A stretch of 64,000 nt of DNA from a virus (IMGVR_UViG_3300025099_000016:8098-72097), one strand, 5' to 3'. Shown: positions 19,846-53,604, counted from the stretch's first letter. The notes: a model not told the origin generated them from the sequence alone. Numbers and translations are program-made.

Positions 19846-19847
19846 TT

Positions 19848-22191: not shown

Positions 22192-22194
22192 CTG

Positions 22195-22390
22195 TCGCTT
22201 TAAACACTCAGGGAGGAGATATTAAAGCAGGTTATACGTAAGCAAACTTTAAGGTTCGACTGATTCTGGTCGCTAACGCGGAAATTAGATCCAGATAAGT
22301 GAGAAGGAATAAGGCTTACTTGTCAACTCATTAGGTTATGGGGAGTAATTCCCCGTGTAAAATTATGAAGCCTCTTTGAACGAGTTGACA
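22195..22390 (+). ncRNA. structured RNA candidate 5' of a tRNA-like element
   Basis: TGTCAACTC(22321)/GAGTTGACA(22382) 9-bp helix enclosing a GGGGA-GTAA-TTCCC GNRA hairpin; TCTGG/CCAGA hairpin. Confidence 0.4.
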
Positions 22391-22392
22391 CC

Positions 22393-22469
22393 CAGCTAGG
22401 TGATGGTCACAGGAAACACGGTTGCGCTCGTGTTGAAAACAATGAGGTTCGATTCCTCACTAGCTACTA
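22393..22469 (+). ncRNA. non-canonical tRNA-like element
   Basis: AGCTAG/CTAGCT acceptor, GTGA-TGG-TCAC mini D-arm, AACACG-GTTGCGCT-CGTGTT arm with an 8-nt loop, TGAGG-TTCGATT-CCTCA T-arm. Confidence 0.55.
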
Positions 22470-22479
22470 AATTACAAAT

Positions 22480-22602
22480 ATGAGAAGATTAATTTACGAT
22501 ATGTACTACGCTGAAGAGATTTCTTCTGACGCTTGCATAAAATTAATAGAAAAATTAGAACAAGTTTCTGAAAAGAGACGTAAAAAAAGAGGAAGATACT
22601 AA
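22480..22602 (+). CDS. small early protein (40 aa)
   Basis: Translated by hand (MRRLIYDMYYAEEIS..); TAATG coupling to the next ORF. Confidence 0.5.
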   Translation: MRRLIYDMYYAEEISSDACIKLIEKLEQVSEKRRKKRGRY

Positions 22603-22808
22603 TGGCAGATATAACATTTGAAGAGATGAACGAAGCAATCAGAGAAGAGATTTATACTGATGTAATACAAGAGTTTGAATACTTGAATAGCTATATTCTC
22701 AATGATACTGAAAAGCAAAATATTATATCAGATATAGTTGATTGCATTCTCAGAGAAAGACAGAGCCAACCTCCGTGTGAGTGTGCTGCATATGGTGGCA
22801 CAAACTAA
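22602..22808 (+). CDS. acidic hypothetical protein
   Basis: 68 aa; stop lies inside promoter 10. Confidence 0.6.
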   Translation: MADITFEEMNEAIREEIYTDVIQEFEYLNSYILNDTEKQNIISDIVDCILRERQSQPPCECAAYGGTN

Positions 22809-22831
22809 ATACGATTAGTGTTGGATAATAT
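22799..22831 (+). promoter_or_regulatory. class E promoter 10
   Basis: CACAAACTAAATACGA-N8-GGATAATAT. Confidence 0.8.
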
Positions 22832-22855
22832 TGTAAACAAATTAAATTAAACTAT

Positions 22856-23089
22856 ATGGAGAACTTATGGAAACGACTGAAACCAGCAGTTAAGACGAAA
22901 ATTCTGGCAGAAAAAGATGAATATCCTTACTTAGTTAATGATGTTAAGACTCAATTAGAAAATAATAAATTCTGGACTGACTTGCCTATTGGTACAGCTA
23001 GACAAGTTGTTAATTTTTCACACGATAGTGTGTTTGAGATTACAATGACTGACTTTATGTGGGGTGATTTATTCATTAAAAAAGCTTAA
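22856..23089 (+). CDS. hypothetical early protein
   Basis: 77 aa, typical leader. Confidence 0.65.
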   Translation: MENLWKRLKPAVKTKILAEKDEYPYLVNDVKTQLENNKFWTDLPIGTARQVVNFSHDSVFEITMTDFMWGDLFIKKA

Positions 23090-23091
23090 TT

Positions 23092-23373
23092 ATGACAAAA
23101 ATTAAAGAACAAACAGTACCTAAATGGTTTGAAGGTGAGGTTTATGACGAAGGTGCAGTAGTCCAAAACCGATTTAGTGGCGAAGAATATGAACTTAATG
23201 CACTTGAATTATCTATTTATGATATGATAATGGGTGCACAAATGTTTATCGAGATGAGATATAACGGTGATATGCTTGATCCTCGCACTGCAGACATGCA
23301 AAAAGATATGCGTAAAGGTTTGGATTGGTTCCGAACTCACAACGCTTCAGCTTACATGGTTCTGCTAGATTAA
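23092..23373 (+). CDS. hypothetical early protein
   Basis: 93 aa, coupled. Confidence 0.65.
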   Translation: MTKIKEQTVPKWFEGEVYDEGAVVQNRFSGEEYELNALELSIYDMIMGAQMFIEMRYNGDMLDPRTADMQKDMRKGLDWFRTHNASAYMVLLD

Positions 23374-23455
23374 TGGATTGGCAAGTGTATGTTCATTTTG
23401 GCATACTAGTATTGTGTGCATTTGAAACTAGAAAACAGACTAAATACAAAGAATA

Positions 23456-23779
23456 ATGACAACAAACGAAATTGAAAAGCAATTAAAACGCAAAGCAGAA
23501 CAGCAAATACGTGAACATGTTAAAGTTATCGTTGATAATATGGCTGAATTTGCTAGAGAACATACTAATATTAACCGTAGTGGTTTGCGATGGTATAGTA
23601 ATCGTGCAAAACCAGAACCTAGGTTCAACGGTGATGATGAACGACTAGATCCATTTAACCATTTTGATTGGAATGAGTTAGCTCAATTAATGAGAAGAAA
23701 TATGGAAGAAACCTTGTTAGAAACTATGGTTGAAAAGAAAACAAAAGAATTATTAAATAAAATGGACTTATTCGAATGA
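23456..23779 (+). CDS. hypothetical early protein
   Basis: 107-aa helical ORF. Confidence 0.6.
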   Translation: MTTNEIEKQLKRKAEQQIREHVKVIVDNMAEFAREHTNINRSGLRWYSNRAKPEPRFNGDDERLDPFNHFDWNELAQLMRRNMEETLLETMVEKKTKELLNKMDLFE

Positions 23780-24030
23780 AAGCATTTGCAATACATGAGT
23801 ATATTGTCAACGAGCTAGGTAAACAACCTAGACATAATGTATATTCTTTAGCTAGTGCTATAACGGATATAGCTGAAGAACAAGATTTAAACGAAGACAA
23901 GTTAATGAGATTACTTCTAGCTAATGAACCTATGGGTGTGTCGCACAGCTACGGGTTTCATACTAGATGGGGTAGATTTATTATTGAAGAAACACAAAAC
24001 AGATATTATGAGTATGAAGGAGAAATTTAG
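23776..24030 (+). CDS. hypothetical early protein
   Basis: 84 aa, ATGA coupling. Confidence 0.6.
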   Translation: MKAFAIHEYIVNELGKQPRHNVYSLASAITDIAEEQDLNEDKLMRLLLANEPMGVSHSYGFHTRWGRFIIEETQNRYYEYEGEI

Positions 24031-24127
24031 AGAATACGGATTCTATGCAGCTTGTACTGCTTATGTAGCACTTATAGGTAGTGTAGTAGTTAGTGCGATT
24101 TATATGCTTATGACTTATGGCAACTAG
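24014..24127 (+). CDS. small single-TM protein
   Basis: MKEKFREYGFYAACTAYVALIGSVVVSAIYMLMTYGN. Confidence 0.45.
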   Translation: MKEKFREYGFYAACTAYVALIGSVVVSAIYMLMTYGN

Positions 24128-24575
24128 AGCTATAGTAAGGTTCGCTACTCGCGAATCAGGTGTATCATTCAGTGAGCACCCGGATAAATGGCATGCGCAA
24201 TTATTTTGTAGATTAGACGGTCACCCTGAATCATTAGGTGTAGATATTGCTAATTCTATAGCTAACAGATGTTTTATACCACATAATTTAGAGATAGATA
24301 GTTTAGATACTAAACGCGGTGATCTAGATTATGTTTACTATGTATGGCAACATTTTGATAAATCTACATGGATTAGCATATTCGAAGCTACCGAAGCTTA
24401 TTGTCCAACCTGTGGACACCGAGACCCAGATGGTGAAGAACGTATGTATGAGTGTATATTTGTAGGTGAACCTTATGATTTACAAAAGAAATTTAGAGAT
24501 AACAAACCAAGAGATTTTGATGGTAACTGGAATGGTGATAAAATCACTTGTGTAGATGTAGAAGGCACAAACTAA
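24117..24575 (+). CDS. hypothetical protein (MATRA..DGHP..LG family) with CxxC
   Basis: 152 aa; stop lies inside promoter 11. Confidence 0.65.
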   Translation: MATRAIVRFATRESGVSFSEHPDKWHAQLFCRLDGHPESLGVDIANSIANRCFIPHNLEIDSLDTKRGDLDYVYYVWQHFDKSTWISIFEATEAYCPTCGHRDPDGEERMYECIFVGEPYDLQKKFRDNKPRDFDGNWNGDKITCVDVEGTN

Positions 24576-24598
24576 ATACGAACGCTAAAGGATAATAT
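24566..24598 (+). promoter_or_regulatory. class E promoter 11 (drives the ligase-to-sigma operon)
   Basis: CACAAACTAAATACGA-N8-GGATAATAT. Confidence 0.8.
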
Positions 24599-24602
24599 AT
24601 GT

Positions 24603-24860
24603 ATGACAAAAAACGAAATACAAAAATTAGGAATCAGTATTGCTGAAGAGTTAATCAAACTAGGTAGAGAATCAGGTGGTATAACTTACATAACTGAAGA
24701 TGATCTTGATCATGCAGTTGGTGAGTTAGCTAGATGCATGACTCTACTTAACTTATACGAAGAGCGCGAAGAATACGAAAAATGTGCAATTATGAAAATA
24801 CAAATTAAAAGATTGAAAGAACAAATAGGTGCAGAAGGAGGATTAGATGATGAGGTATAA
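24603..24860 (+). CDS. protein with a C-terminal UVR (UvrB/C-type) coiled coil
   Basis: EREEYEKCAIMKIQIKRL matches the UVR motif; possibly leaderless. Confidence 0.55.
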   Translation: MTKNEIQKLGISIAEELIKLGRESGGITYITEDDLDHAVGELARCMTLLNLYEEREEYEKCAIMKIQIKRLKEQIGAEGGLDDEV

Positions 24861-25698
24861 ACCAATGCTGGCACACCCTGTCAGCGACCGACCAGTTGAC
24901 TACGATAATGGTCCTGTATTTATACAACCTAAGCTTGACGGCGTGCGTTGTCTAATACAGTATGACAATAGCAAGGTAACAGCGTACTCACGTACAGGTA
25001 AAGAATGGAAAAACATTGACCATATATTGTTCAATCTAAAACCATTCTTTCAACTAAATCCTGACGTAGTACTCGACGGCGAGTTATATAATCACGATCT
25101 AAAAGATGATTTTGAGAAGATTATCTCTTGCGTTCGTAAAACTAAACCTACAGATGAGCATAGAGCTGAGTCTGAACGACTAGTACAGTTTCACTGCTAC
25201 GACATTATAAAACCTAGCCCACGTGGTATGAGTTTTAGTGTACGTGATGAATGGATACAGTTAAATGTACCACTAAACTTTTGTGTAAAACATGTGGATT
25301 CTATCCCTGTACGTAGTGATGATGATGCTCTATGGCAGAATAGTAGAAGCTTAAAAGCGGGTTACGAAGGTTCTATACTTAGAACTAATGATATTTATCA
25401 ACACAAACGTTCACACAACTTACGCAAGTTCAAGCAGTTTCACGACGCTGAAGCTAAGATAATTGGCTGGGTTGCAGGTAAAGGTAAACGTACAGGTACT
25501 ATTGGTAAGTTTATGGCAATGGACACTGATGGCGTAGAGTTCGGTATGCCTGTTATGGATAAGCAGAAATACCTAGAAGAAAACTTCGAAAAGATGCAAG
25601 GATGGGTAGGTAAGATTGCTACGTTCAAATACTTCGAGCGTACAAAAGCTGGTAGTTACCGTCATCCTTTATTCAAATGTATACGCGACTACGAATAG
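24847..25698 (+). CDS. ATP-dependent DNA ligase
   Basis: KPMLAH, QPKLDGVRC (KxDG), LDGELY, EGSILR, KFKQFHDAE. Confidence 0.92.
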   Translation: MMRYKPMLAHPVSDRPVDYDNGPVFIQPKLDGVRCLIQYDNSKVTAYSRTGKEWKNIDHILFNLKPFFQLNPDVVLDGELYNHDLKDDFEKIISCVRKTKPTDEHRAESERLVQFHCYDIIKPSPRGMSFSVRDEWIQLNVPLNFCVKHVDSIPVRSDDDALWQNSRSLKAGYEGSILRTNDIYQHKRSHNLRKFKQFHDAEAKIIGWVAGKGKRTGTIGKFMAMDTDGVEFGMPVMDKQKYLEENFEKMQGWVGKIATFKYFERTKAGSYRHPLFKCIRDYE

Positions 25699-25699
25699 T

Positions 25700-26191
25700 A
25701 TGAATATATTTTACTTAGATGAAGATCCTAAAAAAGCAGCTAAGCTACAATACAATAAACATGTAGTGAAGATGATACTAGAATCTGCCCAAATGTTGTG
25801 TACTGCACACCATCATTATGACAATGGTGACAAAGTACCATACAAGAAAGCGCACTATAATCATCCTTCTACTATATGGGTACGTGAAAACGCTTACAAT
25901 TATATGTGGCTTTACAGGCATATGCTAGCACTAGGTGATGAATATACTAGAAGGTATGGTAAACAGCATTTAACTATCACTAAATGTTATGATCCGCTGT
26001 TTAGATTACCGCCTGGTATACCTATACCTGACCCGTTAACTCACACACAACCTCCGCAGGCTATGCCTGATGAGTACAAGAATAAGTGTAGCGTTCAAGC
26101 TTACTGGAATTATTATATTGGCGACAAAAGCCATATAGCTAATACTAAAACAGAAAAAATATATGAAGAAAGACCTAAAACAACGTATTGA
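25700..26191 (+). CDS. pyrimidine-dimer DNA glycosylase-like protein
   Basis: MNIFYLD..KHVVKMILESAQMLCTAH..HPSTIW; start corrected to 25700. Confidence 0.8.
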   Translation: MNIFYLDEDPKKAAKLQYNKHVVKMILESAQMLCTAHHHYDNGDKVPYKKAHYNHPSTIWVRENAYNYMWLYRHMLALGDEYTRRYGKQHLTITKCYDPLFRLPPGIPIPDPLTHTQPPQAMPDEYKNKCSVQAYWNYYIGDKSHIANTKTEKIYEERPKTTY

Positions 26192-26297
26192 GGACTTTAA
26201 CCGAATTAAATACACCAAAGATGATTCCAAAAGAATCATTATTGCAACATTAAATGCCGAGGGGACTGTGACAACAGCCCCTATATATAAAGAATAA
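26163..26297 (+). CDS. small protein (44 aa)
   Basis: Translated by hand (MKKDLKQRIEDFNRIKY..); fills the gap. Confidence 0.4.
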   Translation: MKKDLKQRIEDFNRIKYTKDDSKRIIIATLNAEGTVTTAPIYKE

Positions 26298-26312
26298 CAG
26301 GCTTATGTCACA
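26267..26312 (-). promoter_or_regulatory. TGTGACA..TGTCACA element, copy C (inverted; overlaps the start codon of 26305)
   Basis: Minus strand TGTGACATAAGCCTGTTATTC..GCTGTTGTCACA. Confidence 0.6.
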
Positions 26313-26925
26313 AACCACACGGAATTTAGATTACTTACATCGTCGTAGAATAGTATACCGACGTGACCCAATAGAACCACCTGATTATGAAAATAGTCAG
26401 TACATGTTCTTTGAAAACGGTACATACCAAGCTTACGATTTATTTAAAGGTAATGCTAAAATAAATACTTATAAAAGTCTTAAATGGCATTTACTAGTAT
26501 TGTGGTATTTAAACCCAAAGCTAAACCCAGATGAGTTTAATAACTTAGCAGAGTTTATCGTAGATAAAGATAATGGCTTTACTACATTTAATATATCTAG
26601 TACAGGTTTAGAAAGGATTATACATGATGTATACATGTCTGATCTTGATCGACCACCTACAAATAGATTACGTAAAGTTGTATTTAAAATGAGTAACGGG
26701 CTTGAGAAACATGAAAAGTTAAGCATCGTGGGTAAATTAATAGGTAGATCAAAACGGATCCATTCTGATGACATTTATCAATGCATGATAGATATGAACG
26801 ATATGGGAAAAAAGATCACGATACGACGTCTAGCAGGCTTATTAGACTGTTCAGCACGAACAATACATCGCAACATGTGTAATGAATTGAAACGTGAAAA
26901 AGAATTATTAAATAGAAAAATATGA
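26305..26925 (+). CDS. HTH DNA-binding protein (candidate origin-binding or regulatory protein)
   Basis: C-terminal ITIRRLAGLLDCSARTIHR helix-turn-helix. Confidence 0.65.
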   Translation: MSQTTRNLDYLHRRRIVYRRDPIEPPDYENSQYMFFENGTYQAYDLFKGNAKINTYKSLKWHLLVLWYLNPKLNPDEFNNLAEFIVDKDNGFTTFNISSTGLERIIHDVYMSDLDRPPTNRLRKVVFKMSNGLEKHEKLSIVGKLIGRSKRIHSDDIYQCMIDMNDMGKKITIRRLAGLLDCSARTIHRNMCNELKREKELLNRKI

Positions 26926-27677
26926 AAAAATATAATGTACAGAATTATATTAGGTATAAAGAAGATGTAAAAGAAAGTATATCTAGGATAGAAGGTAAGT
27001 TCTGGAATGAATATACTAGAGAGGAATTAATAATAAAATTCTTACCACTAGTAGAAAATCTAGCTAGGAAATTTTCAACTTCTCAACAAGCATCTGGTGT
27101 AATGACAATTAATGATCTAATACAAGAAGGTAGTGCAGGCTTGATAGCAGCGGTAGATAAGATAGTATGGCCAAATATTACTGAATCAGAAGATCCTGAG
27201 AAAACTATTAAGTCTTTTTTCTCTAAACGCATACGTGGAGCAATACGTAGACGTATAGACATTAATAGAGGTAACATGCGTATACCTGAACATAAGCTGA
27301 ATGAGATACGTAAAGATTTTGGTGAAGATAAAAAAGCTGTAGAGATGTTTTTTAATTCTGTATTTCTTAGTTTAGACACTCCATTTAATGAAGATGGTTC
27401 AACCTATGATGTTCCAGACGAGTCTAAAGAATACAACTTAGACCTACTTGGTGCGTACATTAAAAGTTTAATGAATCAGTACTTAAACCACAAAGAATTT
27501 CAAGTGTTAAGACTGTCATTCGGTCTTGATTGTAAAAAACACTCAGCGAAAGAAATAGCATCTATTCTAGGTATGAAAGGTAATAGTTCTTATGTACGTG
27601 TTTCACAGTTAAAAAAGCAAGCAATAGGAAAATTAATAGACAACGTTCCTTACTCGCAAGTAGTTGATTATCTGTAG
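26922..27677 (+). CDS. phage sigma70-family RNA polymerase sigma factor
   Basis: Region 2 LVENLARKF..DLIQEG..GLIAAVDK..RIRGAIRR; LSLD; region 4 HTH SAKEIASILG..VRVSQLKKQAIGKL. Confidence 0.88.
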   Translation: MKKYNVQNYIRYKEDVKESISRIEGKFWNEYTREELIIKFLPLVENLARKFSTSQQASGVMTINDLIQEGSAGLIAAVDKIVWPNITESEDPEKTIKSFFSKRIRGAIRRRIDINRGNMRIPEHKLNEIRKDFGEDKKAVEMFFNSVFLSLDTPFNEDGSTYDVPDESKEYNLDLLGAYIKSLMNQYLNHKEFQVLRLSFGLDCKKHSAKEIASILGMKGNSSYVRVSQLKKQAIGKLIDNVPYSQVVDYL

Positions 27678-27696
27678 TTTAAGCGTGAAATAAATG

Positions 27697-27725
27697 TTAA
27701 ATTTGTGTATCTATCTGTAATTATA
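27697..27725 (+). promoter_or_regulatory. class L promoter candidate right after the sigma gene
   Basis: TTAAAT-N17(ending TGTA)-ATTATA. Confidence 0.55.
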
Positions 27726-27750
27726 TAGGTACCGATAAACCAATATACCA

Positions 27751-28302
27751 ATGGCAGAATTAACGAAAACATTAGCGGTCATTCAGACTGAGCTAAAGGC
27801 AAAAAAGTCTTCTTATAACGCCTTCGGAAAATACTATTTCCGTAAAGCAGAAGATATTCTTGAAGCGGCAAAACCGTTTCTAACAAAGCACAATGTATAC
27901 GTCAAGGTTGATGAATCAATCATTAGCGTTGACCCTGTACCAATGATGCAATCCACCGCCACTATTTCTAACGGCAAAGAATCCATCACAGCAACAGCGA
28001 TTGTAGGTGTAGACCTTAATCAAAAAGGTATGCAGACCTCACAACAGTTCGGTGCAGCTTCTACTTATGGTAAGAAGTACGCGCTAGGTAATCTATTTCT
28101 TATTGATGACACTGAAGATGCAGACGCTACCAACAATCATGGTAAGACTACAGCTCCTGAGGTTACTAAGAAAAAGATAACTGCTGCTCAAATGAAAAAA
28201 GCCAAAGACTTTGTTAGTGGTGGTGGGGACATCAAGGCTATATTAGCTAAGTATACAATGTCACCAGCAGAATTAACTGAACTAAAGAAACTAGTTAAAT
28301 AG
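27751..28302 (+). CDS. ERF-family ssDNA annealing protein
   Basis: LKAKK..NAFGKYYFRKAEDILEA; QQFGAASTYGKKYAL..DADA. Confidence 0.8.
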   Translation: MAELTKTLAVIQTELKAKKSSYNAFGKYYFRKAEDILEAAKPFLTKHNVYVKVDESIISVDPVPMMQSTATISNGKESITATAIVGVDLNQKGMQTSQQFGAASTYGKKYALGNLFLIDDTEDADATNNHGKTTAPEVTKKKITAAQMKKAKDFVSGGGDIKAILAKYTMSPAELTELKKLVK

Positions 28303-28303
28303 T

Positions 28304-29035
28304 ATGAAGGAAATACTCGAGAAATTAAGAGTAGATGAACATTATTACGGTGAATACGGTAACCAGTTCTTAAGTAACTCTAATATTAGTACATTACTTA
28401 AGGACCCAGCTAAGCTACGCGATAAGAGGGCTCAAACCCCAGCGTTTTTAGTTGGAGGTTACTTTCACACCGCAATACTTGAGCCTGAAAAGCTTAAATC
28501 TTTTAGAATAGTTGAAGCATCAACTAGGAATACGAAGGTATATAAAGAATTGTCTGGAGGTGAAATGTGTTTGTTACAAAGTGAAGTTGATAAGATCGAA
28601 CTCATGACTCAAGCAATGATGGATAATGATGTATGTAGAGACCTTATAAAACCTGTATTAGCAGAAGTAGAATATGAAGAGCCACGTGTTGGCGAACTAT
28701 TCGGTAATATGTGGAAGGGTAAAGCAGATGTTATTAACCATGGGGAAGAGCTTGTGATAGATCTTAAAACTACCTCTGATATAGATAAGTTTAGGTGGTC
28801 AGCATCTAAATACAACTACGATAGTCAAGCATATATTTATAGTAAGTTATTCGGTTACGAGATGATATTTATAGTCATTGACAAGAATACTAACAGGATA
28901 GGTATATATGATTGCTCGCCAGAGTTTTATAAACGAGGTGAGGAGAAAGTTAGGCAGGCTAGTGCTGCATATGATTTGTTCTACAAATCTGAAGACTATG
29001 ACTTTAAACAGTATCTACATAATGAAACACTTTAA
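28304..29035 (+). CDS. PD-(D/E)XK exonuclease (DUF3799/RecE-like)
   Basis: FLSNS..; KGKAD..VIDLKTT; YDSQAYIY. Confidence 0.8.
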   Translation: MKEILEKLRVDEHYYGEYGNQFLSNSNISTLLKDPAKLRDKRAQTPAFLVGGYFHTAILEPEKLKSFRIVEASTRNTKVYKELSGGEMCLLQSEVDKIELMTQAMMDNDVCRDLIKPVLAEVEYEEPRVGELFGNMWKGKADVINHGEELVIDLKTTSDIDKFRWSASKYNYDSQAYIYSKLFGYEMIFIVIDKNTNRIGIYDCSPEFYKRGEEKVRQASAAYDLFYKSEDYDFKQYLHNETL

Positions 29036-29068
29036 TACAAACTAAATACGACTACTAACGGATAATAT
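29036..29068 (+). promoter_or_regulatory. class E promoter 12
   Basis: TACAAACTAAATACGA-N8-GGATAATAT. Confidence 0.8.
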
Positions 29069-44598: not shown

Positions 44599-44629
44599 TA
44601 TAATATTACATGCTACGTAAACAGTTTAC
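44599..44629 (-). promoter_or_regulatory. class L promoter candidate
   Basis: Minus strand GTAAAC-N17(ending TGTA)-ATATTATA. Confidence 0.5.
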
Positions 44630-47600
44630 TGGTGTGCGTAACATCTTTTGTTTTTCCTTTCCGTTATGTTCTTACACCGAGGACCTTTACCGCCTCTAGT
44701 ATTTGCTTTACATCTATATTCTTTTTTACCGTCACCATCTAAATCGTCTCCATCTTTCCTGTTTTTCTCTGCCTCAGCTCTCTTTCTTTTGTTCTCTTTC
44801 TTTTTATCTTCACTTTCAGCTTTCTTCTTACCCGCTCTCTCTTGCTTAACTTTAGCTTTAGCCTCCTCTAGCTCCTTGTCTTTAACATCTAAACTCCACT
44901 TATCCCAACCAGCTATTAAAGCTACTCGTTTCCAAGTCTCGTGGTTACTATTTATAGCTTCCTCTAAGTTCTGAGCTTTCCTAACAACTCTGGCTAAAGG
45001 AACGTTTGTTGTGGCTTCAACAAGGTTACCGATAACGTTTAGTATAGGATTATCTATATCTAACCCCATTTTTTCTGGCACATCTTTGTTATACTCATAA
45101 CTATATATGGCAGACATTATTTTCCTAAGTTTACTACCTATAGGTGGGGATAATTGTACTGCTTCAATTGCTACTTTAGATAATTCTCTCTTACCGTAAG
45201 GCTTGTCTCTTTCTTCTAAATACTTCATGATAGTATTCTTAAGAGTGGAAGCCATAGCACCATACACGCCAGTACCTCTTAACAAAGTATCTAAAGCTCC
45301 ATTAGCTACACGTGTTGTTTTAGTTTTAGTCTTTTCTTCATCTTCATCTCCACCGAACAATAAAAACGCTAAACCAGTTTGTAAGCTACCGAATATAACA
45401 TTCTGCATAGCACCATAATATAATATCCTAGACACATGAGACTTCCAGTCACCCCTACCATTAACTAAATCTGATATTGCTTTCTTAGTTAGTCTAGTAT
45501 ATTGCATCGGAGTGTTTTGCCAAGCTAATACTAATCTACCTAACGTCCCAGCTTGTTGCTGAGATATAAGGTCAGGTCTAGAAGATTGTTGTGTTTCTTC
45601 TGCGATCTCTTGGAATTGATCGAAAGCTTTTGTTTCAGCCTCTTTCTGACTTAATCCTTCTTTAATATATTTGTTTATCTTATTTCTGTAATAAGTCGCG
45701 CCACCAGATGCTATAGCGAAACTATCCGCGATCTGTGTAGGTGTGAAACCTATCTGAAGCAAATATCTAACAGCGGCTTTGTATTTATCTTTCGCACCAC
45801 TCTTAGCTACAGTATTACTTAGCTCCGATAAGTTTACATCAATAGACATACCAGACCTACGCTGTTTTAACATGTCTGAATTAAACAACGTTATAAAATC
45901 TTTCCAATATTGAGGTTGGTTAGCGAAAGCTTTAGCCGCTTGGAATATATTATTATCTCCCCAATCTATAAAGTTAACCGTGGATAGGGTTTGAAGCATC
46001 GCTGATCTAGTGTTAAAGAACATAACAGCACCAACAGACCCGTTGATCCAGTCCATAAAGCCATTTACTACTTTATCTTTTTTACCAGTAACTCTGTTAC
46101 TACCAGTTTCCATACGGTATAACATATTCTCTAAAGCATCTCTAAAGTCTGTACCATAAACAGCCTCTATCTTATTCATGTTTTCAGGTGAAAATATAAT
46201 GTCTACATTATCTTTCCATTCAGACAAGAACTCAGCTCTATTGGTCTGGCTAGATTGCCCAAATAAATCTGAAGCTATATTCCCAACAACCCAATTTTCG
46301 TCAGGTGTCACGTAACCGTCCTTAGCTCTAGATATTATACCTAAAGTATCAGCAAATGCTTTTGTTTTAGGATCGTTATTAACGTGGTCAGACAATAGTT
46401 CAATTTCGTTTTCTGATATACCTGGTATATCTATACCACTCTTGCTCCACAAGTAAACTCTTATCGCATCATTAACAGTGAAGTCAGTTCCAGACACGTT
46501 TTTATTGAGATTTTTGATAACCGTTGGCATCTCTTTTTTCAAAGTTTTAAACTCTTCAGAAGTTCTTTGCTTAGCAAAGTTCATATCTCTAATACCCTTA
46601 GCGAATGGATCTAATAAATGTTCTTTAAAGAAAGCCATGTCGGCATCACCTTGTTTACCCTTGCCCAGGAAGTTGTAAAGTAAACCTTTAAAATCCTCAG
46701 CTGATGGTGGAACGAAGAATTTCTTTAAAATACCACCATCTACCTTCTTACCTCTTAATCTAGCTTGAGCATCGGAGAACACTTTACCTATAGGTACACC
46801 AGAGCTTCTTTCAAGTATATTATTGAAGTTAGCCGCACCATCTTGACTGAACTTAAGTTTAGCTTGTACTACTTTAGATTTAATATCTAATTGATCTAGT
46901 ACATCTTTAACAGCTTTAACGTTTGGCAAAGCATCATCAACAAAGTACATGTCGTTATAACCCTCAGCAAATTTCTGTAACATCCATTGACCCTTAGCTT
47001 CACCTTCACTCTTGCCTAAGCCAGTTATATTTCTCAAAGGTAAATCTACACCTTGTGTTTTCAACCACTGCTGTATAGGCCCAGCTGAAGCTTGTTGTCT
47101 AGCTGTAAGTATGAATACATTTTTATTACCGTACTTAGCTATTTGATTTTTTAGTTTCTGAAGTAGAGGACCTTCCTTTCCACCACGAACATTTGCAAAA
47201 TCAGAGAAATCGAACTCATACCCAGCGGCTGCATATTCAGGACCTTCGATCGGCCATTCTTCAGACGTTATCTTAACCTGTTGTTTAGTAACTGGGTCTG
47301 TAGCGACAACGAAGTTTTCACCACCAATAATAAGTGTTTCGTCAAAGTCAAATGTAGACATACCTTTTGAGTTGGCATTATCAAATCTAACTTCACTAAA
47401 CTTGTCTATTTTGCCAATAAAATTTCTTGGTAAAGGTTGATCTTGCTTTAGATTATCAGTGTTTATTTCAACAAAGTTTACGCCTAACTCTTTAAATCTT
47501 TTTTTATTCGCTTGAATAGATTTATAACTATTCTTCACAGCGGTATTAGTTAGAATTCTTTCAGGTCTAGCTTTATTTCTAGCTAAAGCAGTTTCTAAAG

Positions 47601-50600
47601 AAGAGTCAACAAATATAATTTGAACATCATATCCAGCTTGCTTGAACTCTCTAACAGATCTTTCTACACCAGCCTTTTGAGCTCCGGTACTATGTGTGAC
47701 AATGCTCTTACCAGTTTCTCGTTGTTTTGCTTTAAGCTTATCAAGATCTGCACTAGAGTCATATTGTAAATTCCAAAATTTTTCCGACTGCTCTCTAGTG
47801 AACTCATTCATATCTTTTGGTAACCCGGCTTTTTTAATACCTTTTTCTAAAGCGATATCAGGATTCATTACTTCAAACCCTTGATCTTTTAAACCAAGTT
47901 TTTTAATTATAGTGGACTTACCAGATCCTGAAGCACCAACAACTAATATAGCTTTTCTATCTGGTACTATTCTTTGGATATTACCATCGGTGCTATTTCT
48001 AACGACTTCTCTAGCTTTTCTAGTGTTGTCTAAGTTCTTGATGTCAGCTTCATTAGCTATTAATCCAACTTCGCTTATAGCGTCTACATATTCAGATGCC
48101 TGCTCTCTAGTTATCTTACCGGTTAATATCTCTGATATTAAATTATTCTGTACATCGACTAATGCCCTAACTTTAGTCTTGCTCATACCTTTAGTATCTA
48201 TACCTACCTTAAAGTATTCAGGTATAGTCATGTTCTTAGATGGTAAGAAATAGTTATTTAAGTTTATACCACCCTTAGCGTATCTTATCATCGACGCCAT
48301 ACCAAGGTCTAACCAAGGTAGTTTATCATCTAATATAGCGGGTACTACCTCTTCCCAGAATTCATTAGGCATTGAGTCAACTAAGCTTTCTCTAAGTATA
48401 TTCCCATCCTTATCTTTAATAGCTTTTAGCATGTTATCATCAACTTGAGTTAATGACAACTGAACAAACGCTGCTTTAGCAACTTTCAATACATTATCTA
48501 TAGGTGTTTGATTTATTGCTGCACTTAAAAACATTGTGCCGATATTGTTTTGGGGCATAGAATGCTCCTCCCTCATCTCAACATCATAATGCAACTTACC
48601 ATCCTTATAGTACACACCGACTAGAGAAGCTGAAGTTCTAAATATGGCATCACCATTACTACTAGCGTTAGTAACAAATCTAGCAAAGAACCAAGCATCA
48701 TCTGGATTATTCTTTAAATGTTTCTGCACGTCAGTAAACATTTTAGCTAGGAAGTCTATTTTTTGTTGTTCAAACTCGAAAAATTCTTTCCCACTTAACT
48801 CTTGCTTACCAACGATAAACTTAACCTCACCGTTCTTTTTAACTACTCTTTTAGGATCAAGTTTTTGTGTACTGTGAAATCTGAATCTCTTTAAGAAGTT
48901 TGGCAACTCGTACCTTCTCATCCCAGCTAGTTCGTCAAAAACATCCTTAACACCAAACATACTTTTCCCTCGCCCGTTAGACATACCAACTCTAAATAGA
49001 GTAGCATAGACAGGATCAAGATCAGCCATTGTTTTAATTATTCTAGATGTTTCTTCACCTAAAGTTTTATCTCTACCTACTTCTCTACCTATCTGTACTA
49101 GTGATTCAAAATTAATTAAAGTTACAGGTACTTCTCCTCTAGTTCTACTAACCTTAGTGCTGACTATTTTAGCTACCTTGCTCAATAATGGATCAGTTAT
49201 ACCAGCATCTTTAAGTATATGCCTAGACTCCATATTAGCATACTTCTTAAGTTCTCTAGAAACACTAACAGCATCTTCACTAAACATAACAGGTGACTTA
49301 CCACTAGCCATTTGTTGTACAGTTGTGGCTTGAGTATCATCTTGCATTAGAACCTCTCTAATGGCTTGATTTGACATAGCCCTATCTAACTGTTTAGCTA
49401 AAGCTAAAACCCTCGAGGATGTGTTCCTATCGTCTCTCTGTGGCTTACCATCTATAATACCGAATACCTCTAAAAACTCTGTTCTAGTTATATTAGGTTT
49501 TTTAGATTGAGCAGTCAAACCAGCTTTGGTTTTCTCTCTCTTAGATTTTTTATTATAGAACTTATCTAATAAAACTTTTTGAACACCTGTCGCTGTACCA
49601 TCTTCAGTCGCACCTTCAGGTAACATTGATTGTAGCATGTCAGCGTTCTTAGCTATAAACATCTGAGCGTTAGCTAACTCTGGTTTACTAAGATTAGCAT
49701 TACTAGTTATTTTCTTGGAAGGTATACTCATTAACTCACCAACAGTCTCAGTAGCTATGTTAGGTGTTTTCTTATATGTAGTACCTGTAAGGTCGTTGTC
49801 TTTAACGTACTGCTTAGCTTTAGGTGCTATCTTATCTCTAACCTTTAATCTGTCAGCTAGAACAATACCTTTTCTTTTAGGACCAGATTGTTTAATACCT
49901 TCTTCAGTGGTAACGCTTTCAGCTTGTTTTGCTATACCTTCGTCAGTCATTGACTTGGTGGCAGTGTCTTGAACCCCTCTTTTAGCCATCACCTCTTTTG
50001 CTCTTTGAGGTAAGAACTGATTAATGTAGGCTGCAACGTTTTGATACTTGTGTTTTGCTGGATTAAAATCTTTAACTAATCCTAATACAGTTCTAGCTTT
50101 TGCTTTATCGGTACCGGGATCATATAGTATGTCAGCTATTATATCTTCTTTATTATCTAGTAAGTCATTTCTAATATCTTCTGTCTGTGCATTAGCTAAG
50201 GCTCTACTAAATATATTCTCAGCCATACCTCTATACTCCATAGCTATAACTCCAGAAATATCATCTTTCATTCTAGCCATCATCTTTAAATCAGCTTCAG
50301 TCTTTATTTCTTTATTTTGAATATCAAGTATGGGTTTATATAAATCTTGCACCCTCTCTGAAGCTTCAACGTCTATAGATTCTTTTGGCTCCACTGTGGT
50401 ATCAGTATCTTCAGTCACACCAGCCGTTAATTCTCTACCTATTTTTATACCTTCTAACGATGCTTTTGTAAACGCTTTATTTCTACCAAACATGTTGCTC
50501 TTAGCATTCATATCAGTTATAAAGTTTAAAACATCTTCAGCCGTGTTAAGCTCTACGTTTTTCATACCTGACGCTTGTAGTATTCTACGTATAGGTGATT

Positions 50601-53600
50601 TAAGTTTAGCACCCAAGCTAGTATTGATCTTAATATCACCACTCTTCAAAGCATCCATTAACAAGGTTACTTTCTCCTCAGCTCTAACAGACTCAGGCTT
50701 ATTAATATAAGCTGTTAATCTACTAGACATTTCAGATTGAGCTACAGCATCTGGATCTAAATCACTTAGTATATCATCAACAGCATTACCCAAAGCAATA
50801 GCAGCTCTAGGATTATCCGCTAAAGTATTCTTTAACAACTGATGCATCATCTCATGTTGTACTACGTTCGTAGCGCCTCTCTCGGCAGCAAACTCAGGGT
50901 TCACTAATATCATATCTGCATGTATAGCAGAAGCACCGTGGCTGTTATTAAACGTTTCCTCAGTTAAAGCCTTCACACTAGCCTTATCCTCTTGTAACTG
51001 CTTTATCTCTTCTTTGATCTTAGTTTTAGATTCTTCGTCAGCAGTTTTTAAATCTTCCTTCTTCTTCTTTATTTTCTTATCAACAGCTTCTACCTCAGCT
51101 TTCTTATAAGTCTTTAACTGTTCACTTATGTTTTCACTATCAATCTTTACAACACTTATAGGTTTACCAAACATCTTGGTAGCTTTTCTTTCAAGCTCCT
51201 TAGTATCTCTTTCTACTCTACCTAAGTTTTCACTTTTGTTAGCGTTAGCTATTGTTTGATTTTTTAAAGCTGTTAAGTTAGCTATCTGAGCGTTGTTATC
51301 TTTTACTTGAGACTCTATTTGTTCTGGAGTTAAACCAAATTCACCTCTAATGCTTTTGTTATTAGCTTTTAAAGCAGCTATAGTTACGTCTACATCTATT
51401 AAAGCTTGCTTCTCTTGCGGTGTCATTTTATCTATGTTAGAAACAGTCTCATCCATTAGCTGTGAATGTTGACCCACTAACATACCTATATCCGACTCTA
51501 TAGCTTTTCTATTTTCTGGAGACAGTTCTACCTCACTAAGTATTCTACTTTTTTGTTGTATCTTTTCACTTATACTTTGTAACTCAGCTGTAGCATCTGT
51601 AGATTGAAAAGCTTTAGCTACATTCTTACCTATTAAAGGAGACTTGTATACGAGCCCACTCATAAATACACCACTAATGAAACTTTCGGTTGCACCTTCT
51701 AATAGTGATTTACTCTCATCTCCTAATATAAATCTATCAGTAGCATTGGAAGCTAATTGAGCTAAAACCTCTGTACCACCTTCCTCTATAGGGTCGTATA
51801 AATTCTCGTATAAACCTTTTCTAGTAAAAAAGTTTCGCTTCATAGTATTAGCAAAACCTCTCTTAGCTGCGGGGTTAGCTTTGAGTAGTGCTTTAACTTT
51901 ATTGGCTTGACCAAGTGTAACCTTCTCAGATAGTCCCTCCGCTAAACCAGTTAGTATAGCAGTGGAATACTTTTGAGCAAATGTATAATTTTTCCCTGTA
52001 TCTCTTTCCTCTCTATCTATATCCTTAAACTTCTGACCAGCAGAAGAAGCTCCTAATATAAAAAGACTCGCACCGCCAGTAGTAAACGTAACAGCTGTAT
52101 TAGCTGCTTGAGACGTAACTAAATGACCAAACCACTCTCCAAGCTCCTCTCCATTACTAATATCTTTAAACTCTCCAGGTTTTTCTAAACCATTTAGTAA
52201 GTCTTCGTTAACTTTATCTATAGCGTCTATTCCTTCCCTAATAAGAGGAGTAGCTTTCATCATTCCCGATGCTACTGGACCCATTAGCGGTGCAATCCAC
52301 TCTGGCATATCTAATTCTTTAGGTATTTCCAAAGCTTTCTGACCAACCTCTAATACTCCAGAACCTAATGTCATAGCACCAGAAGCTAGTTGACCACTCA
52401 AGTTAGCAGCCCAACCATAGTTCCTACCAACAGCATCTAAGTAACCAGTTAATTCCTCTTCCTTCTCAACTAGACCAGAACCTTCTTTCTGAGCGTTATC
52501 AAAACCTTTTAAGTTCTTGTCTCTAAAGTCTATTAATTCCTCGTATGTTAAACCACCACCACTATCATAGTCTGTATTTAATTTATCAAACTGCAACCTT
52601 AAACTAGCTAACTGCTTGTTAGCATCATCAACCTCTTCTTGAGTTTTATATTCCGCTGAGTTTATTTTATTCGCTTGAGCATTTATATCTCCTAGCTTTG
52701 TTTGAAGATTCTTTAAGTCATTGAATTTAGATTCTACACTCTCTAAGTTTGATATAAACTGTTTAGACCTCTTAACATTACTTTGAATCTCATTGTTTAG
52801 CTTCTTAGCGGACTCACTGGTTTCTTGTTCTAAATCTTTTTGATATGAACTTTTTTTAGAGCCAGCTGCTAATATCGAAAATGGATTCTCAACGGAAGAT
52901 AACTCTTCCATTGCTTCTTCAAAGTTATCCTCAAACTCTTGTTGCTCTATGTTTTTAGATCTTGCTTTAAGCATTTCAGTGTTGATAGACTCTTGAGGAA
53001 TGTTTTTAATAAAATCCTCGTACTTCTCCGTGCCGGGCTCTAGTTTTTCGCCTGTAGTAGAATAATGAGATCTAAGAATATTTCTAGTAGCTTCCTCTTT
53101 CAAGCTATTCAATTCTCTATTAGCTTCAACCTGCTTATTTCTAGCTTGTTGATACTCTGCGTTAGAACCAGAGAAAGCTCCCGCTGTGGAATACTTAGAG
53201 GTAAAAGCATTATGTTTTACTACATTTTTAGGAGGTAACTCTGCTTGAGAAATTTGATTTAATAAGTCTATCTGCCCTTGAGCTTCTGACTGTATCTCAA
53301 GTAGTCTCTCTTCTTTAGGTTTGAAAGCTCTAAATTTATCTAGAGTACTATCTACTGATTCCGAAGAAGTACCTTCCGAAGGTGATTCCGTATTTGTTGT
53401 TTGATTTACTTGAGGTGGATTTACCTCTTGAGTCTGTGCTGCAGTTTCCGATCCCGCAGTCGCACTTGTTGCAGGATCTTTCTGGTTTCCCTGATCTTGT
53501 GATACAGGTGATTTACCTTGAGATTTCATCGTTGATAAAAACTCTTCTTCTCTATGTGGAGCGACCTCATAAGGTTTACCATCCACTAAATAAACTTTGT

Positions 53601-53604
53601 TCAT
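44626..53604 (-). CDS. giant polyvalent ejection/internal virion protein (zincin, sigma70-like, P-loop kinase, HAD phosphatase, C-terminal CCCH finger)
   Basis: 2992 aa; HEMMH (aa 917), sigma-like segment (~1112-1315), GASGSGKS (~1890), DFDET..ILTAR..FVDD (~2086 onward), C-terminal C..C..CYAH. Confidence 0.8.
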   Translation of the reverse strand: MNKVYLVDGKPYEVAPHREEEFLSTMKSQGKSPVSQDQGNQKDPATSATAGSETAAQTQEVNPPQVNQTTNTESPSEGTSSESVDSTLDKFRAFKPKEERLLEIQSEAQGQIDLLNQISQAELPPKNVVKHNAFTSKYSTAGAFSGSNAEYQQARNKQVEANRELNSLKEEATRNILRSHYSTTGEKLEPGTEKYEDFIKNIPQESINTEMLKARSKNIEQQEFEDNFEEAMEELSSVENPFSILAAGSKKSSYQKDLEQETSESAKKLNNEIQSNVKRSKQFISNLESVESKFNDLKNLQTKLGDINAQANKINSAEYKTQEEVDDANKQLASLRLQFDKLNTDYDSGGGLTYEELIDFRDKNLKGFDNAQKEGSGLVEKEEELTGYLDAVGRNYGWAANLSGQLASGAMTLGSGVLEVGQKALEIPKELDMPEWIAPLMGPVASGMMKATPLIREGIDAIDKVNEDLLNGLEKPGEFKDISNGEELGEWFGHLVTSQAANTAVTFTTGGASLFILGASSAGQKFKDIDREERDTGKNYTFAQKYSTAILTGLAEGLSEKVTLGQANKVKALLKANPAAKRGFANTMKRNFFTRKGLYENLYDPIEEGGTEVLAQLASNATDRFILGDESKSLLEGATESFISGVFMSGLVYKSPLIGKNVAKAFQSTDATAELQSISEKIQQKSRILSEVELSPENRKAIESDIGMLVGQHSQLMDETVSNIDKMTPQEKQALIDVDVTIAALKANNKSIRGEFGLTPEQIESQVKDNNAQIANLTALKNQTIANANKSENLGRVERDTKELERKATKMFGKPISVVKIDSENISEQLKTYKKAEVEAVDKKIKKKKEDLKTADEESKTKIKEEIKQLQEDKASVKALTEETFNNSHGASAIHADMILVNPEFAAERGATNVVQHEMMHQLLKNTLADNPRAAIALGNAVDDILSDLDPDAVAQSEMSSRLTAYINKPESVRAEEKVTLLMDALKSGDIKINTSLGAKLKSPIRRILQASGMKNVELNTAEDVLNFITDMNAKSNMFGRNKAFTKASLEGIKIGRELTAGVTEDTDTTVEPKESIDVEASERVQDLYKPILDIQNKEIKTEADLKMMARMKDDISGVIAMEYRGMAENIFSRALANAQTEDIRNDLLDNKEDIIADILYDPGTDKAKARTVLGLVKDFNPAKHKYQNVAAYINQFLPQRAKEVMAKRGVQDTATKSMTDEGIAKQAESVTTEEGIKQSGPKRKGIVLADRLKVRDKIAPKAKQYVKDNDLTGTTYKKTPNIATETVGELMSIPSKKITSNANLSKPELANAQMFIAKNADMLQSMLPEGATEDGTATGVQKVLLDKFYNKKSKREKTKAGLTAQSKKPNITRTEFLEVFGIIDGKPQRDDRNTSSRVLALAKQLDRAMSNQAIREVLMQDDTQATTVQQMASGKSPVMFSEDAVSVSRELKKYANMESRHILKDAGITDPLLSKVAKIVSTKVSRTRGEVPVTLINFESLVQIGREVGRDKTLGEETSRIIKTMADLDPVYATLFRVGMSNGRGKSMFGVKDVFDELAGMRRYELPNFLKRFRFHSTQKLDPKRVVKKNGEVKFIVGKQELSGKEFFEFEQQKIDFLAKMFTDVQKHLKNNPDDAWFFARFVTNASSNGDAIFRTSASLVGVYYKDGKLHYDVEMREEHSMPQNNIGTMFLSAAINQTPIDNVLKVAKAAFVQLSLTQVDDNMLKAIKDKDGNILRESLVDSMPNEFWEEVVPAILDDKLPWLDLGMASMIRYAKGGINLNNYFLPSKNMTIPEYFKVGIDTKGMSKTKVRALVDVQNNLISEILTGKITREQASEYVDAISEVGLIANEADIKNLDNTRKAREVVRNSTDGNIQRIVPDRKAILVVGASGSGKSTIIKKLGLKDQGFEVMNPDIALEKGIKKAGLPKDMNEFTREQSEKFWNLQYDSSADLDKLKAKQRETGKSIVTHSTGAQKAGVERSVREFKQAGYDVQIIFVDSSLETALARNKARPERILTNTAVKNSYKSIQANKKRFKELGVNFVEINTDNLKQDQPLPRNFIGKIDKFSEVRFDNANSKGMSTFDFDETLIIGGENFVVATDPVTKQQVKITSEEWPIEGPEYAAAGYEFDFSDFANVRGGKEGPLLQKLKNQIAKYGNKNVFILTARQQASAGPIQQWLKTQGVDLPLRNITGLGKSEGEAKGQWMLQKFAEGYNDMYFVDDALPNVKAVKDVLDQLDIKSKVVQAKLKFSQDGAANFNNILERSSGVPIGKVFSDAQARLRGKKVDGGILKKFFVPPSAEDFKGLLYNFLGKGKQGDADMAFFKEHLLDPFAKGIRDMNFAKQRTSEEFKTLKKEMPTVIKNLNKNVSGTDFTVNDAIRVYLWSKSGIDIPGISENEIELLSDHVNNDPKTKAFADTLGIISRAKDGYVTPDENWVVGNIASDLFGQSSQTNRAEFLSEWKDNVDIIFSPENMNKIEAVYGTDFRDALENMLYRMETGSNRVTGKKDKVVNGFMDWINGSVGAVMFFNTRSAMLQTLSTVNFIDWGDNNIFQAAKAFANQPQYWKDFITLFNSDMLKQRRSGMSIDVNLSELSNTVAKSGAKDKYKAAVRYLLQIGFTPTQIADSFAIASGGATYYRNKINKYIKEGLSQKEAETKAFDQFQEIAEETQQSSRPDLISQQQAGTLGRLVLAWQNTPMQYTRLTKKAISDLVNGRGDWKSHVSRILYYGAMQNVIFGSLQTGLAFLLFGGDEDEEKTKTKTTRVANGALDTLLRGTGVYGAMASTLKNTIMKYLEERDKPYGKRELSKVAIEAVQLSPPIGSKLRKIMSAIYSYEYNKDVPEKMGLDIDNPILNVIGNLVEATTNVPLARVVRKAQNLEEAINSNHETWKRVALIAGWDKWSLDVKDKELEEAKAKVKQERAGKKKAESEDKKKENKRKRAEAEKNRKDGDDLDGDGKKEYRCKANTRGGKGPRCKNITERKNKRCYAHQ

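Follow-up and report, generated by a model that had tools for sequence, protein, structure and literature searches.

Phages take over early transcription in the host cell by relying on the host holoenzyme, by injecting a polymerase of their own, or through injected enzymes that modify the polymerase of the host. A factor reduced to the sigma-2 domain can work, as demonstrated by the late sigma factor of phage T4, gp55, which is sigma-2-like only; gp55 is a free protein of 185 aa that is made during infection and acts on TATAAATA late promoters together with gp33 and the gp45 clamp. In N4-like and crAss-like phages, giant virion RNA polymerases encoded in the structural module enter the cell by injection and initiate or direct early transcription (PMC13492108, PMC5512222). 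Injected polyvalent proteins rich in zincins have been described by Iyer, Burroughs, Anand, de Souza, and Aravind in 2017 (PMC5512222).

Here we examine a 2992-aa protein (44626..53604, minus strand, from ORF listing and translation; hereinafter, the giant protein) encoded in a 64,000-nucleotide stretch of viral DNA (the window). The surrounding genes encode tail-fibre-like and virion structural proteins, and the giant protein is probably a virion-carried, injected polyvalent protein of an uncultured marine phage. It shares with the described polyvalent proteins (PMC5512222) a giant multidomain architecture in which a zincin-like metallopeptidase is the hub and the effector modules are unrelated to one another; here, the modules are an HEMMH zincin with a conserved Glu, a sigma-2-like domain, a P-loop kinase, and a HAD motif. 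The Glu-zincin metallopeptidase-like domain (aa ~898-1067, 50404..50913, minus strand, as are all features of this protein) contains HEMMH at aa 917-921 (50842-50856, exact string search), exactly where the original prediction placed it, upstream of the sigma-like sequence; the family consensus is HExLH followed by EExLT, which includes the conserved downstream Glu. Next come the helical domain resembling sigma-70 regions 1.2-2.4, that is, sigma-2 (aa ~1079-1212, 49969..50370), a low-confidence linker (aa 1215-1244, 49873..49962; pLDDT <50 at model residues 336-365) that includes the string TKSMTDEG, and a conserved 200-aa domain (aa 1245-1443, 49276..49872). A variable cargo module, a P-loop kinase of the AAA_33 or Zeta-toxin type (aa 1883-2027, 47524..47958; Pfam E-values 5e-10 and 1.1e-7; labelled ATPase or polynucleotide kinase in PHROGs), is present in few homologues, and a candidate HAD-like phosphatase region (46855..47367) is suggested by a DxDxT motif, FDFDETL, at aa 2085-2091 (47332-47352).

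The conserved blocks of the giant protein are aa 900-1450 and aa 2075-2900. The C-terminal part (aa ~2075-2900, 44905..47382) is the best-conserved piece among the relatives, with 44-73% identity across eleven related genomes, whereas the middle of the protein is not similarly conserved but rather is a mosaic, with different modules in different relatives. The exchange of cargo modules among relatives and the location of the gene in the virion module are, again, features of polyvalent proteins, and delivery with the DNA and self-processing would be predicted for the giant protein as well. The segment that includes the zincin and the sigma-2-like domain is conserved in 77 giant proteins and 556 cluster representatives, and is far from a chance feature; in the search of the representatives, the first conserved stretch was query 19-211, that is, the zincin domain. 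Megablast and tblastn searches of 50,697 GenBank phage records with the giant protein, two segments of it, and the free sigma factor of the same phage produced no match and revealed neither a cultured relative nor a host; phmmer and family-profile searches against PDB sequences returned nothing relevant, the ESM Atlas no usable match, and BFVD a single family member. Uncultured marine phages encode hundreds of giant proteins with the sigma-2-like domain.

The original prediction was that a sigma-70-like domain, with regions 2.3-2.4 and, given an 8-aa insertion, an ECF-type region 4.2, is buried in this protein. The amino acid strings on which it was based are real, as found by exact string search on the minus strand: AMEYRGMAENIFSR (aa 1121-1134), KEDIIADIL (aa 1152-1160), VLGLVKDFNP...EVM (aa 1173-1206), TKSMTDEG (aa 1216-1223), and GTTYKK...SKKI (aa 1274-1299); they span aa 1121-1299 rather than the proposed ~1112-1315. 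An AlphaFold2 model covering aa 880-1450 (mean pLDDT 80.4) was compared to the PDB using Foldseek. No row was significant for this model or for the model of the downstream domain; sigma chains made up 24 of the 50 best rows (45 of the 50 in a second reading of Foldseek's list). The match comprises model residues 200-333 and the range from ~95/110 to 447 of E. coli sigma-70, that is, region 1.2 and region 2, and the predicted structure displays the sigma-2 fold, the region 1.2 helix with the helical bundle of regions 2.1-2.4, over the whole domain. The model also resembles PDB 7d7d chain F, which, from its size and place in the complex, we take to be gp55.

Profile-profile comparison of a 132-sequence alignment of the domain with a 7-sequence sigma-2 alignment (hhalign) yielded a probability of 64% and P = 6.3e-5 over 89 columns, in the register of regions 2.1-2.4, compared to P = 0.68 for the reversed alignment, P = 0.23 or worse for 20 column shuffles, and P = 0.34 for the neighbouring domain against sigma-2. 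This clear signal was obtained only with the diverse sigma-2 set from a Mangrovicoccus genome; the free phage sigma family, used by itself, gave weak results (P = 0.64, and P = 0.012 with a deeper alignment). Pfam returned nothing for a Mangrovicoccus ORF with a weak domain-B match. Counterparts of the motifs of regions 2.1, 2.2, and 2.3-2.4 follow in the same order as in sigma-2; AAYINQFLPQR aligns with the sigma-70 stretch ATWWIRQAITR, with a Tyr at a Trp position, and the region 2.3-2.4-like helix (consensus AAYINKFLPaRAIEA) is the best-conserved element of the domain family.

Sigma70_r2 (PF04542) was the most frequently matched Pfam family among 40 scanned relatives (4 members, best E-value 4.7e-4). 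Matches to PF04542 lie inside the same domain in P0068 (aa 855-921, E-value 1e-4), P0086 (aa 748-798), and P0196 (aa 291-331), the E-values of the relatives' domain matches being 1e-4, 4.7e-4, and 4.5e-3; in the P0068 phage record, the match scores 28.8 bits, above the 24-bit cut-off. Among the 40 giants that scored highest with a crude sigma-2 HMM, 31 had their best match inside the sigma-like domain, which comprises ~6% of each protein. Pfam does not detect the window's own copy, with no Sigma70_r2 match at E ≤10 in the whole protein or in three sub-segments; a six-frame Sigma70_r2 search of the genome matched only the free sigma gene, and the equivalent segments of six motif-bearing relatives yielded no sigma match in Pfam.

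These observations show that aa ~1079-1212 is a divergent homologue of the sigma-2 domain of the sigma-70 family (regions 1.2 and 2.1-2.4). Chance convergence of a small helical bundle, without homology, is extremely improbable: fold comparison, profile-profile comparison with controls, and Pfam matches in relatives are three independent lines of evidence that involve the same residues in the same register, and both the share of sigma chains among the best Foldseek rows and the concentration of the HMM matches in such a small part of each protein count against it. The domain differs from its counterparts in sigma factors in being located around residue 1080 of a 2992-aa structural-module protein, whereas sigma-2 heads a factor of 180-600 aa, and in the presence of a loop of ~12 residues that, in the model, breaks the region 2.2-like helix.

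No sigma-3 or sigma-4 was detected in the giant protein after the sigma-2-like domain. The part of the original prediction that concerns regions 2.1-2.4 stands, in the proposed register, whereas the proposed region 4.2 helix-turn-helix is not supported. In a six-frame search at E ≤10, the region 4 models PF04545 and PF08281 matched the free sigma gene only and nothing in this segment of the giant protein. The string proposed as region 4.2 falls within the separate, well-conserved 200-aa domain, for which hhalign against a sigma-4 alignment gave P = 0.14; the confident model of this domain (pLDDT 88.5) matches no solved fold. With no sigma-4 signal in these comparisons, the segment does not appear to be a complete sigma factor. 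The 200-aa domain also matches no Pfam LPD family, a difference from the polyvalent proteins. Strongly conserved and confidently folded but lacking a known fold, it merits attention independently of the sigma-2-like domain.

The same phage encodes, as originally noted, a free sigma factor of 251 aa (26922..27677, plus strand; PF04542, E-value 1.5e-5; PF04545, 3.9e-6; PF08281, 0.009), to which all 8000 of the 8000 scored candidates from marine metagenomes matched. The twelve early promoter-like sites on which the original prediction relied are also present (15237..29068, plus strand, motif search). They share the 32-bp motif TACAAAnnAAATACGA-N8-GGATAATAT, with GGATAATAT starting at 15260, 15566, 16319, 16657, 17095, 18500, 19442, 20308, 21813, 22823, 24590, and 29060, and the motif was found in at least 118 IMG/VR stretches. 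The search for a late promoter motif yielded nothing other than the AT-rich leader of a single late gene, which is conserved. Half of the motif, AATACGAC, resembles the T7 promoter, so a phage single-subunit polymerase was considered as the reader; this candidate was dropped given that a six-frame search, the control of which was also silent, detected no T7-like RNA polymerase.

The original prediction envisaged a virion-delivered sigma-2 plus sigma-4 factor, cut out by the zincin, that directs the host core enzyme to these twelve early (class E) promoters, and several observations are consistent with this possibility. The sigma-2 homology is real, and gp55, a structural match of the giant's model, is a precedent for a factor with sigma-2 only. 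The motif has a -35/-10-like geometry, with GATAAT in the -10 place; sigma-70-type sites are not overrepresented in the early region (73 compared to 74.7 in shuffles), and Bacteroidota-type sites (TTTG-N17-21-TAnnTTTG) number 0 across the window compared to 2.6 in shuffles. The lack of a detected T7-like polymerase fits as well, and the free sigma gene is itself downstream of a copy of the motif, the one at 24590. Moreover, 6 of 12 related genomes retain the AAYINxFLPxRAxE helix.

Comparison of related genomes points in the opposite direction, in addition to the lack of a sigma-4 signal. The early motif is kept in eleven related genomes and is the same in 12 genomes, whereas the sigma-2-like domain in the giants of the eleven motif-sharing relatives is only 19-26% identical to that of the window. 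The AAYINxFLPxRAxE helix is replaced in the genomes that do not keep it; G004, G008, G007, G011, and G012 differ in the region 2.3-2.4-like helix, and in G011, G012, and G007, the domain was detected only in part or weakly, or not at all. The closest relative, G011, has a free sigma that is 94% identical and yet a very different middle region of the giant protein. For G002, the relative most like sigma, the record comprises the late arm only. The combination of a shared motif with a divergent or undetected domain weakens the case for a role of the giant protein in reading the early promoters. In contrast, the region 2.4 and 4.2 helices of the free sigma are nearly invariant across the motif-sharing genomes and, therefore, a self-amplifying circuit of the free sigma explains the motif at least as well. 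The free phage sigma is a better candidate than the giant's domain for reading the twelve early promoters, and the sigma-2-like module is probably not their specific reader. The story of an injected sigma that reads these promoters does not fit the related-genome comparison, and we consider it quite improbable.

Another line of evidence comes from prediction of complexes between the domain and the host polymerase. A complex of aa 1076-1217 with residues 1-400 of Flavobacterium johnsoniae beta', taken as a stand-in for the host protein, scored 0.34, which was rated as weak support, with no interface reported. The docking runs scored 0.34, 0.40, and 0.26, compared to 0.02 for the best of 3 controls, passing a mark that 58 of 80 solved complexes reach, as do 2 of 110 mismatched pairs; only 7 of the 80 solved complexes, and both passing mismatches, do so with a score ≤0.60. 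The runs share at least 84% of the contacts, with partner pLDDT of at least 78. Given that complexes of sigma-2 with beta' have already been solved, the predictor might have reproduced known structures in passing this mark; the result shows likeness rather than binding by this particular copy.

The sigma-2 fold might instead have been co-opted for a job that does not involve the polymerase, such as a helical spacer or packing element of the giant protein stored in the capsid, a regulator of the zincin, or a binder of a variable host defence protein. The extreme divergence of the domain among phages that are otherwise 50-94% identical is typical of an arms race or structural filler, and such hypervariability among close relatives would be compatible, too, with a role that does not involve the beta' clamp, itself well conserved. 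The coupling of the domain to the zincin, with one HExxH ~100-180 aa upstream in every relative, the insertion loop in the region 2.2-like helix, and the lack of a direct Pfam match for the window's copy are all compatible with such a role. However, the best-conserved element is the 2.3-2.4-like helix rather than a generic helical surface, the most sigma-like members attain the Pfam cut-off, and the predicted complex with beta', albeit rated weak, scores well above the controls. On balance, we regard co-option as doubtful.

The best reading, for which we consider the chances to be about even, is that the giant is a mosaic injected polyvalent protein with a sigma-2 module that docks on the host RNA polymerase. 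The genomic context and the known class of polyvalent proteins suggest that the giant protein would be packaged in the virion and leave it together with the DNA. The central portion of the protein would be a string of exchangeable effector modules, which its own zincin may cut apart; inspection of the domain borders revealed no L-x-[SA]-Q junction code. In the cell, the sigma-2-like module would dock, by analogy with the roles of sigma-2, on the beta' clamp helices of the host core enzyme, equipping the incoming phage with a pre-made grip on host transcription. This grip could serve to recruit or retain the polymerase at the incoming genome or, alternatively, to direct the neighbouring modules to this enzyme. 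A sigma-2 module is not among the domains listed for polyvalent proteins, given that the word "sigma" does not occur in the paper (PMC5512222).

Under this preferred reading, the giant protein and the virion polymerases of N4-like and crAss-like phages would be functional analogues, all being injected giants whose genes lie in the structural module. The difference is that those proteins carry a polymerase catalytic domain, whereas the sigma-2-like domain is the only transcription-related part of the giant protein and would need the host core enzyme. A stronger version, which we deem unlikely, is that the module released by the zincin is a virion-borne, gp55-like minimal sigma, a few copies of which load the host core and start the first transcripts. 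Unlike gp55, which is free and small, the domain is internal to a 2992-aa, probably pre-made virion protein. If this version is true, an injected gp55-like minimal sigma would be a third strategy of early transcription, beside the injected polymerases of N4 and crAss-like phages and the use of the host holoenzyme. If the reading of the module as a polymerase-docking element is true, an injected protein with a sigma core-binding domain would offer phages one more way to seize the host enzyme at time zero.

The window covers positions 8098-72097 of its IMG/VR source record (72,097 bases), which is rated complete by CheckV. A giant protein of 2992 residues is encoded by the minus-strand open reading frame 44626..53604 of the window. 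Virion structural proteins, a tail-fibre-like protein and one protein with weak similarity to the crAss muzzle are encoded nearby, and the left arm of the genome encodes a P22-like portal; the giant gene is therefore a member of the structural module, and its product is presumably packaged in the virion. One neighbour, a 1026-residue virion protein (60819-63899, minus strand), matches both the C-terminal domain of the crAss-like muzzle (a weak match, E 0.0034) and a PHROG virion structural protein (E 1.5e-54), which hints at a crAss-like tail organisation. The phage also encodes a full-length GroEL-type chaperonin (11402-12967, minus strand; Cpn60_TCP1, E 2e-53).

The only region of the giant recognised by Pfam and PHROGs is a P-loop kinase (aa 1883-2027), which is followed by a DxDxT (HAD) motif at aa 2085 and is found in few of the homologues. 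By homologue coverage, conservation in the giant is concentrated in aa 900-1450 and aa 2075-2900; aa 880-1400 are matched by 556 cluster representatives, and aa 1050-1400 by 77 giant proteins of 1650-3830 residues. No match to any part was found among GenBank phage records, protein-level search included, and the phage group is uncultured. The giant genes of relatives G004, G007-G014 and G016 (loci L136-L179) were compared with 44626-53604 of the window. In the giants of relatives that carry the early promoter motif discussed below, the C-terminal ~900 residues are 44-73% identical to those of the window protein and the middle is a mosaic, with 1000-1800 residues swapped or diverged beyond the reach of BLAST.

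The original prediction placed a sigma factor in this middle part, next to a zincin protease. All the strings it quoted were recovered by exact search, namely HEMMH (aa 917-921), AMEYRGMAENIFSR (aa 1121-1134), KEDIIADIL (aa 1152-1160), VLGLVKDFNP...EVM (aa 1173-1206), TKSMTDEG (aa 1216-1223) and GTTYKK...SKKI (aa 1274-1299), and those assigned to the putative sigma segment span aa 1121-1299, not aa 1112-1315. Folding of aa 880-1450 with a 50-row alignment (mean pLDDT 80.4) yielded a zincin region (model residues 1-188), a helical domain (model residues 196-335, that is, aa 1075-1214) and, joined by a disordered linker, a very confidently predicted third domain (model residues 366-564). A Foldseek search with this model returned no significant row, but numerous sigma-A chains appeared at E values around 1. 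When the model was compared with 48,161 PDB representatives using VIA-align, 24 of the 50 best rows were sigma factors, all aligned to model residues ~200-333, including sigma-A domain 2, SigB, ShbA, sigma-28 and pro-sigma-K; SigR aligned over 78/78 residues at 2.9 A and SigE over 80/80 residues at 2.7 A, and further sigma rows came from SigW, sigma-32, RpoS, CnrH, AlgU, SigI6 and SigC. On re-examination of the top 750 Foldseek chains, 45 of 50 rows were occupied by sigma chains, with E. coli sigma-70 aligned from residue ~95-110 to 447, which corresponds to regions 1.2 and 2, the non-conserved insert being skipped.

Another line of evidence comes from profile comparison. The consensus of 131 copies of the domain gathered by iterated HMM searches (roughly, ..eeFKPIvnkIverR .. 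reLLtdEIEtG .. kRGILDLIrdYkPeSG..VPLAAYINKFLPaRAIEA) is closer to sigma than the window's own copy. Aligned by hhalign with a sigma-2 set that consisted of six Mangrovicoccus sequences (RpoD, RpoH and ECF types) and the separate sigma factor of the phage, the domain alignment gave a probability of 64% and P 6.3e-5 over 89 columns, in the same register as that proposed originally for region 2. The reversed alignment (P 0.68), 20 column shuffles (P 0.23 or worse) and the neighbouring domain (P 0.34) served as controls. A crude HMM built from the seven sequences of the sigma-2 set was also run against the giants; of the 40 that scored highest, 31 had their best match within the sigma-2-like domain. 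In a Pfam search of 40 relatives, Sigma70_r2 was the family matched by most members, and the matches in the giants P0068 (aa 855-921, E 1e-4), P0086 (aa 748-798, E 4.7e-4) and P0196 (aa 291-331, E 4.5e-3) all fall within the sigma-2-like domain; in a six-frame search of the IMG/VR record of the P0068 phage, a 2406-residue frame scored 28.8 bits against a cut-off of 24 bits. The window's own copy has no Pfam match. Given the fold, the profile-profile alignment and the Pfam matches in relatives, we conclude that the giant contains a genuine but distant sigma-2 homologue.

The second half of the predicted sigma factor gained no support. The string read as region 4.2 lies within the third domain (aa 1245-1443; window 49276-49872, minus strand), which shows no sigma-4 signal (hhalign against a sigma-4 alignment, P 0.14), and the sole match to Sigma70_r4 and r4_2 in the genome is the free sigma gene (26922..27677, plus strand; 251 aa). 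Within the module, the third domain is conserved best, and many of its residues hardly vary (as in LPEG..GT.TGVP, FLE.FGI.DGK and TNQ.VR); it is net basic (33 K/R vs 23 D/E). Modelled alone, it reached pLDDT 88.5 and pTM 0.86 and matched nothing among solved folds or viral predicted folds; a small helix-turn-helix may be hidden within it, but nothing supports one. A 1371-residue ORF without a Pfam family on a bacterial chromosome contig (Mangrovicoccus ximenensis NZ_QBKZ01000015.1; locus L004, 3319-7434, plus strand) shows 30% identity to this domain over 80 residues and may be prophage-borne.

The sigma domain had been proposed to read the early promoters, on the argument that something pre-made must do so. 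The early motif, TACAAAnnAAATACGA-N8-GGATAATAT, is present in 12 copies between 15237 and 29068 (one occupies 24567-24598), all on the plus strand ahead of early genes, one of them upstream of the operon that contains the free sigma gene. Sigma-70-type sites are not enriched (73 vs 74.7 in shuffles), the Bacteroidota-type bipartite site TTTG-N17-21-TAnnTTTG does not occur on either strand of the whole window (2.6 expected from shuffles), and the genes lack Shine-Dalgarno-like leaders. With no other kind of promoter evident, the question of what reads the early promoters first is a real one. In several copies the upstream half of the motif reads AAATACGAC, and this half resembles positions -17 to -10 of the T7 promoter; because a search of the genome, whose control was also silent, turned up no gene for a T7-like RNA polymerase, this likeness is probably coincidental. 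Upstream of a late gene (472-1317, minus strand) and of its orthologues in 11 relatives, there is a conserved AT-rich leader, ..TTATTATATTATATTATG, after a GC-rich hairpin; this element probably leads a highly expressed late gene and probably does not act as a general promoter of late genes.

The core of the early motif is carried by at least 118 IMG/VR stretches, and eleven near-complete genomes, picked for carrying the motif, were compared with the window. The motif is kept in all 11 relatives, and a full-length free sigma, 57-94% identical to that of the window, in 10; in these free sigmas, the helix resembling region 2.4 (KSFxxKRxxGxIRRxID) and the recognition helix of 4.2 (xxYVRxSQLKxQA) hardly vary. 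(Two IMG/VR records, G006 and G010, each have two Sigma70_r2 matches in separate ~260-residue frames near opposite record ends, which may represent either a pair of sigma genes or a repeat at the termini.) The sigma-2-like domains of the relatives, in contrast, are only 19-26% identical to the window's copy. Six of the 12 genomes retain the AAYINxFLPxRAxE helix of the giant, and other sequences replace it in G004, G008, G011, G007 and G012; with the domain HMM, no copy was detected in G007, and those detected in G011 and G012 were partial or weak. Even the nearest relative, G011, whose free sigma is 94% identical, has a giant whose middle is among the most different. An invariant promoter facing a hypervariable candidate reader argues against the giant's domain reading the early promoters; this is not decisive, because the genomes were chosen for the motif and promoter recognition might need no more than a few conserved contacts. 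At least as strong a candidate is the free sigma, which would amplify its own expression once a little initial transcription had taken place.

Thus, a sigma-2 homologue lies between a conserved Glu-zincin and a conserved domain of unknown fold, within a mosaic giant of the structural module. Such a giant would belong to the polyvalent proteins, injected carriers of effectors in which zincins are believed to cleave between the modules (Iyer et al. 2017, PMC5512222); the paper that defined this class never mentions sigma, and a non-exhaustive literature search that included a jumbo-phage survey found no report of an ejected protein with a sigma-like domain. The domain is a distant member of the sigma-2 family and not a complete sigma factor; the nearest functional model is T4 gp55, which, unlike the giant's domain, is a free protein.

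Sigma-2 domains bind the clamp helices of beta' and, once bound, the non-template -10 strand; docking on the host core polymerase would therefore be the simplest function of the module. The complex of aa 1076-1217 with residues 1-400 of F. johnsoniae beta', a stand-in for that of the host, was predicted with a score of 0.34 against 0.02 for the best control, and at least 84% of the contacts agreed between runs, with a partner pLDDT of at least 78 and no interface given. Of 80 solved complexes, 58 reached the mark for a complex, as did 2 of 110 mismatched pairs; at scores of 0.60 or under, only 7 of the 80 reached it, together with both passing mismatches. The prediction was rated as weak support, and the pass may reflect solved sigma-beta' complexes already known to the predictor. 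If the module does dock, stoichiometric shut-off of the host polymerase is an unlikely role because the few copies injected would not suffice to titrate the polymerase of the cell. It would fit better if the module recruited the polymerase to the phage genome as it enters, or directed a neighbouring catalytic module to the enzyme.
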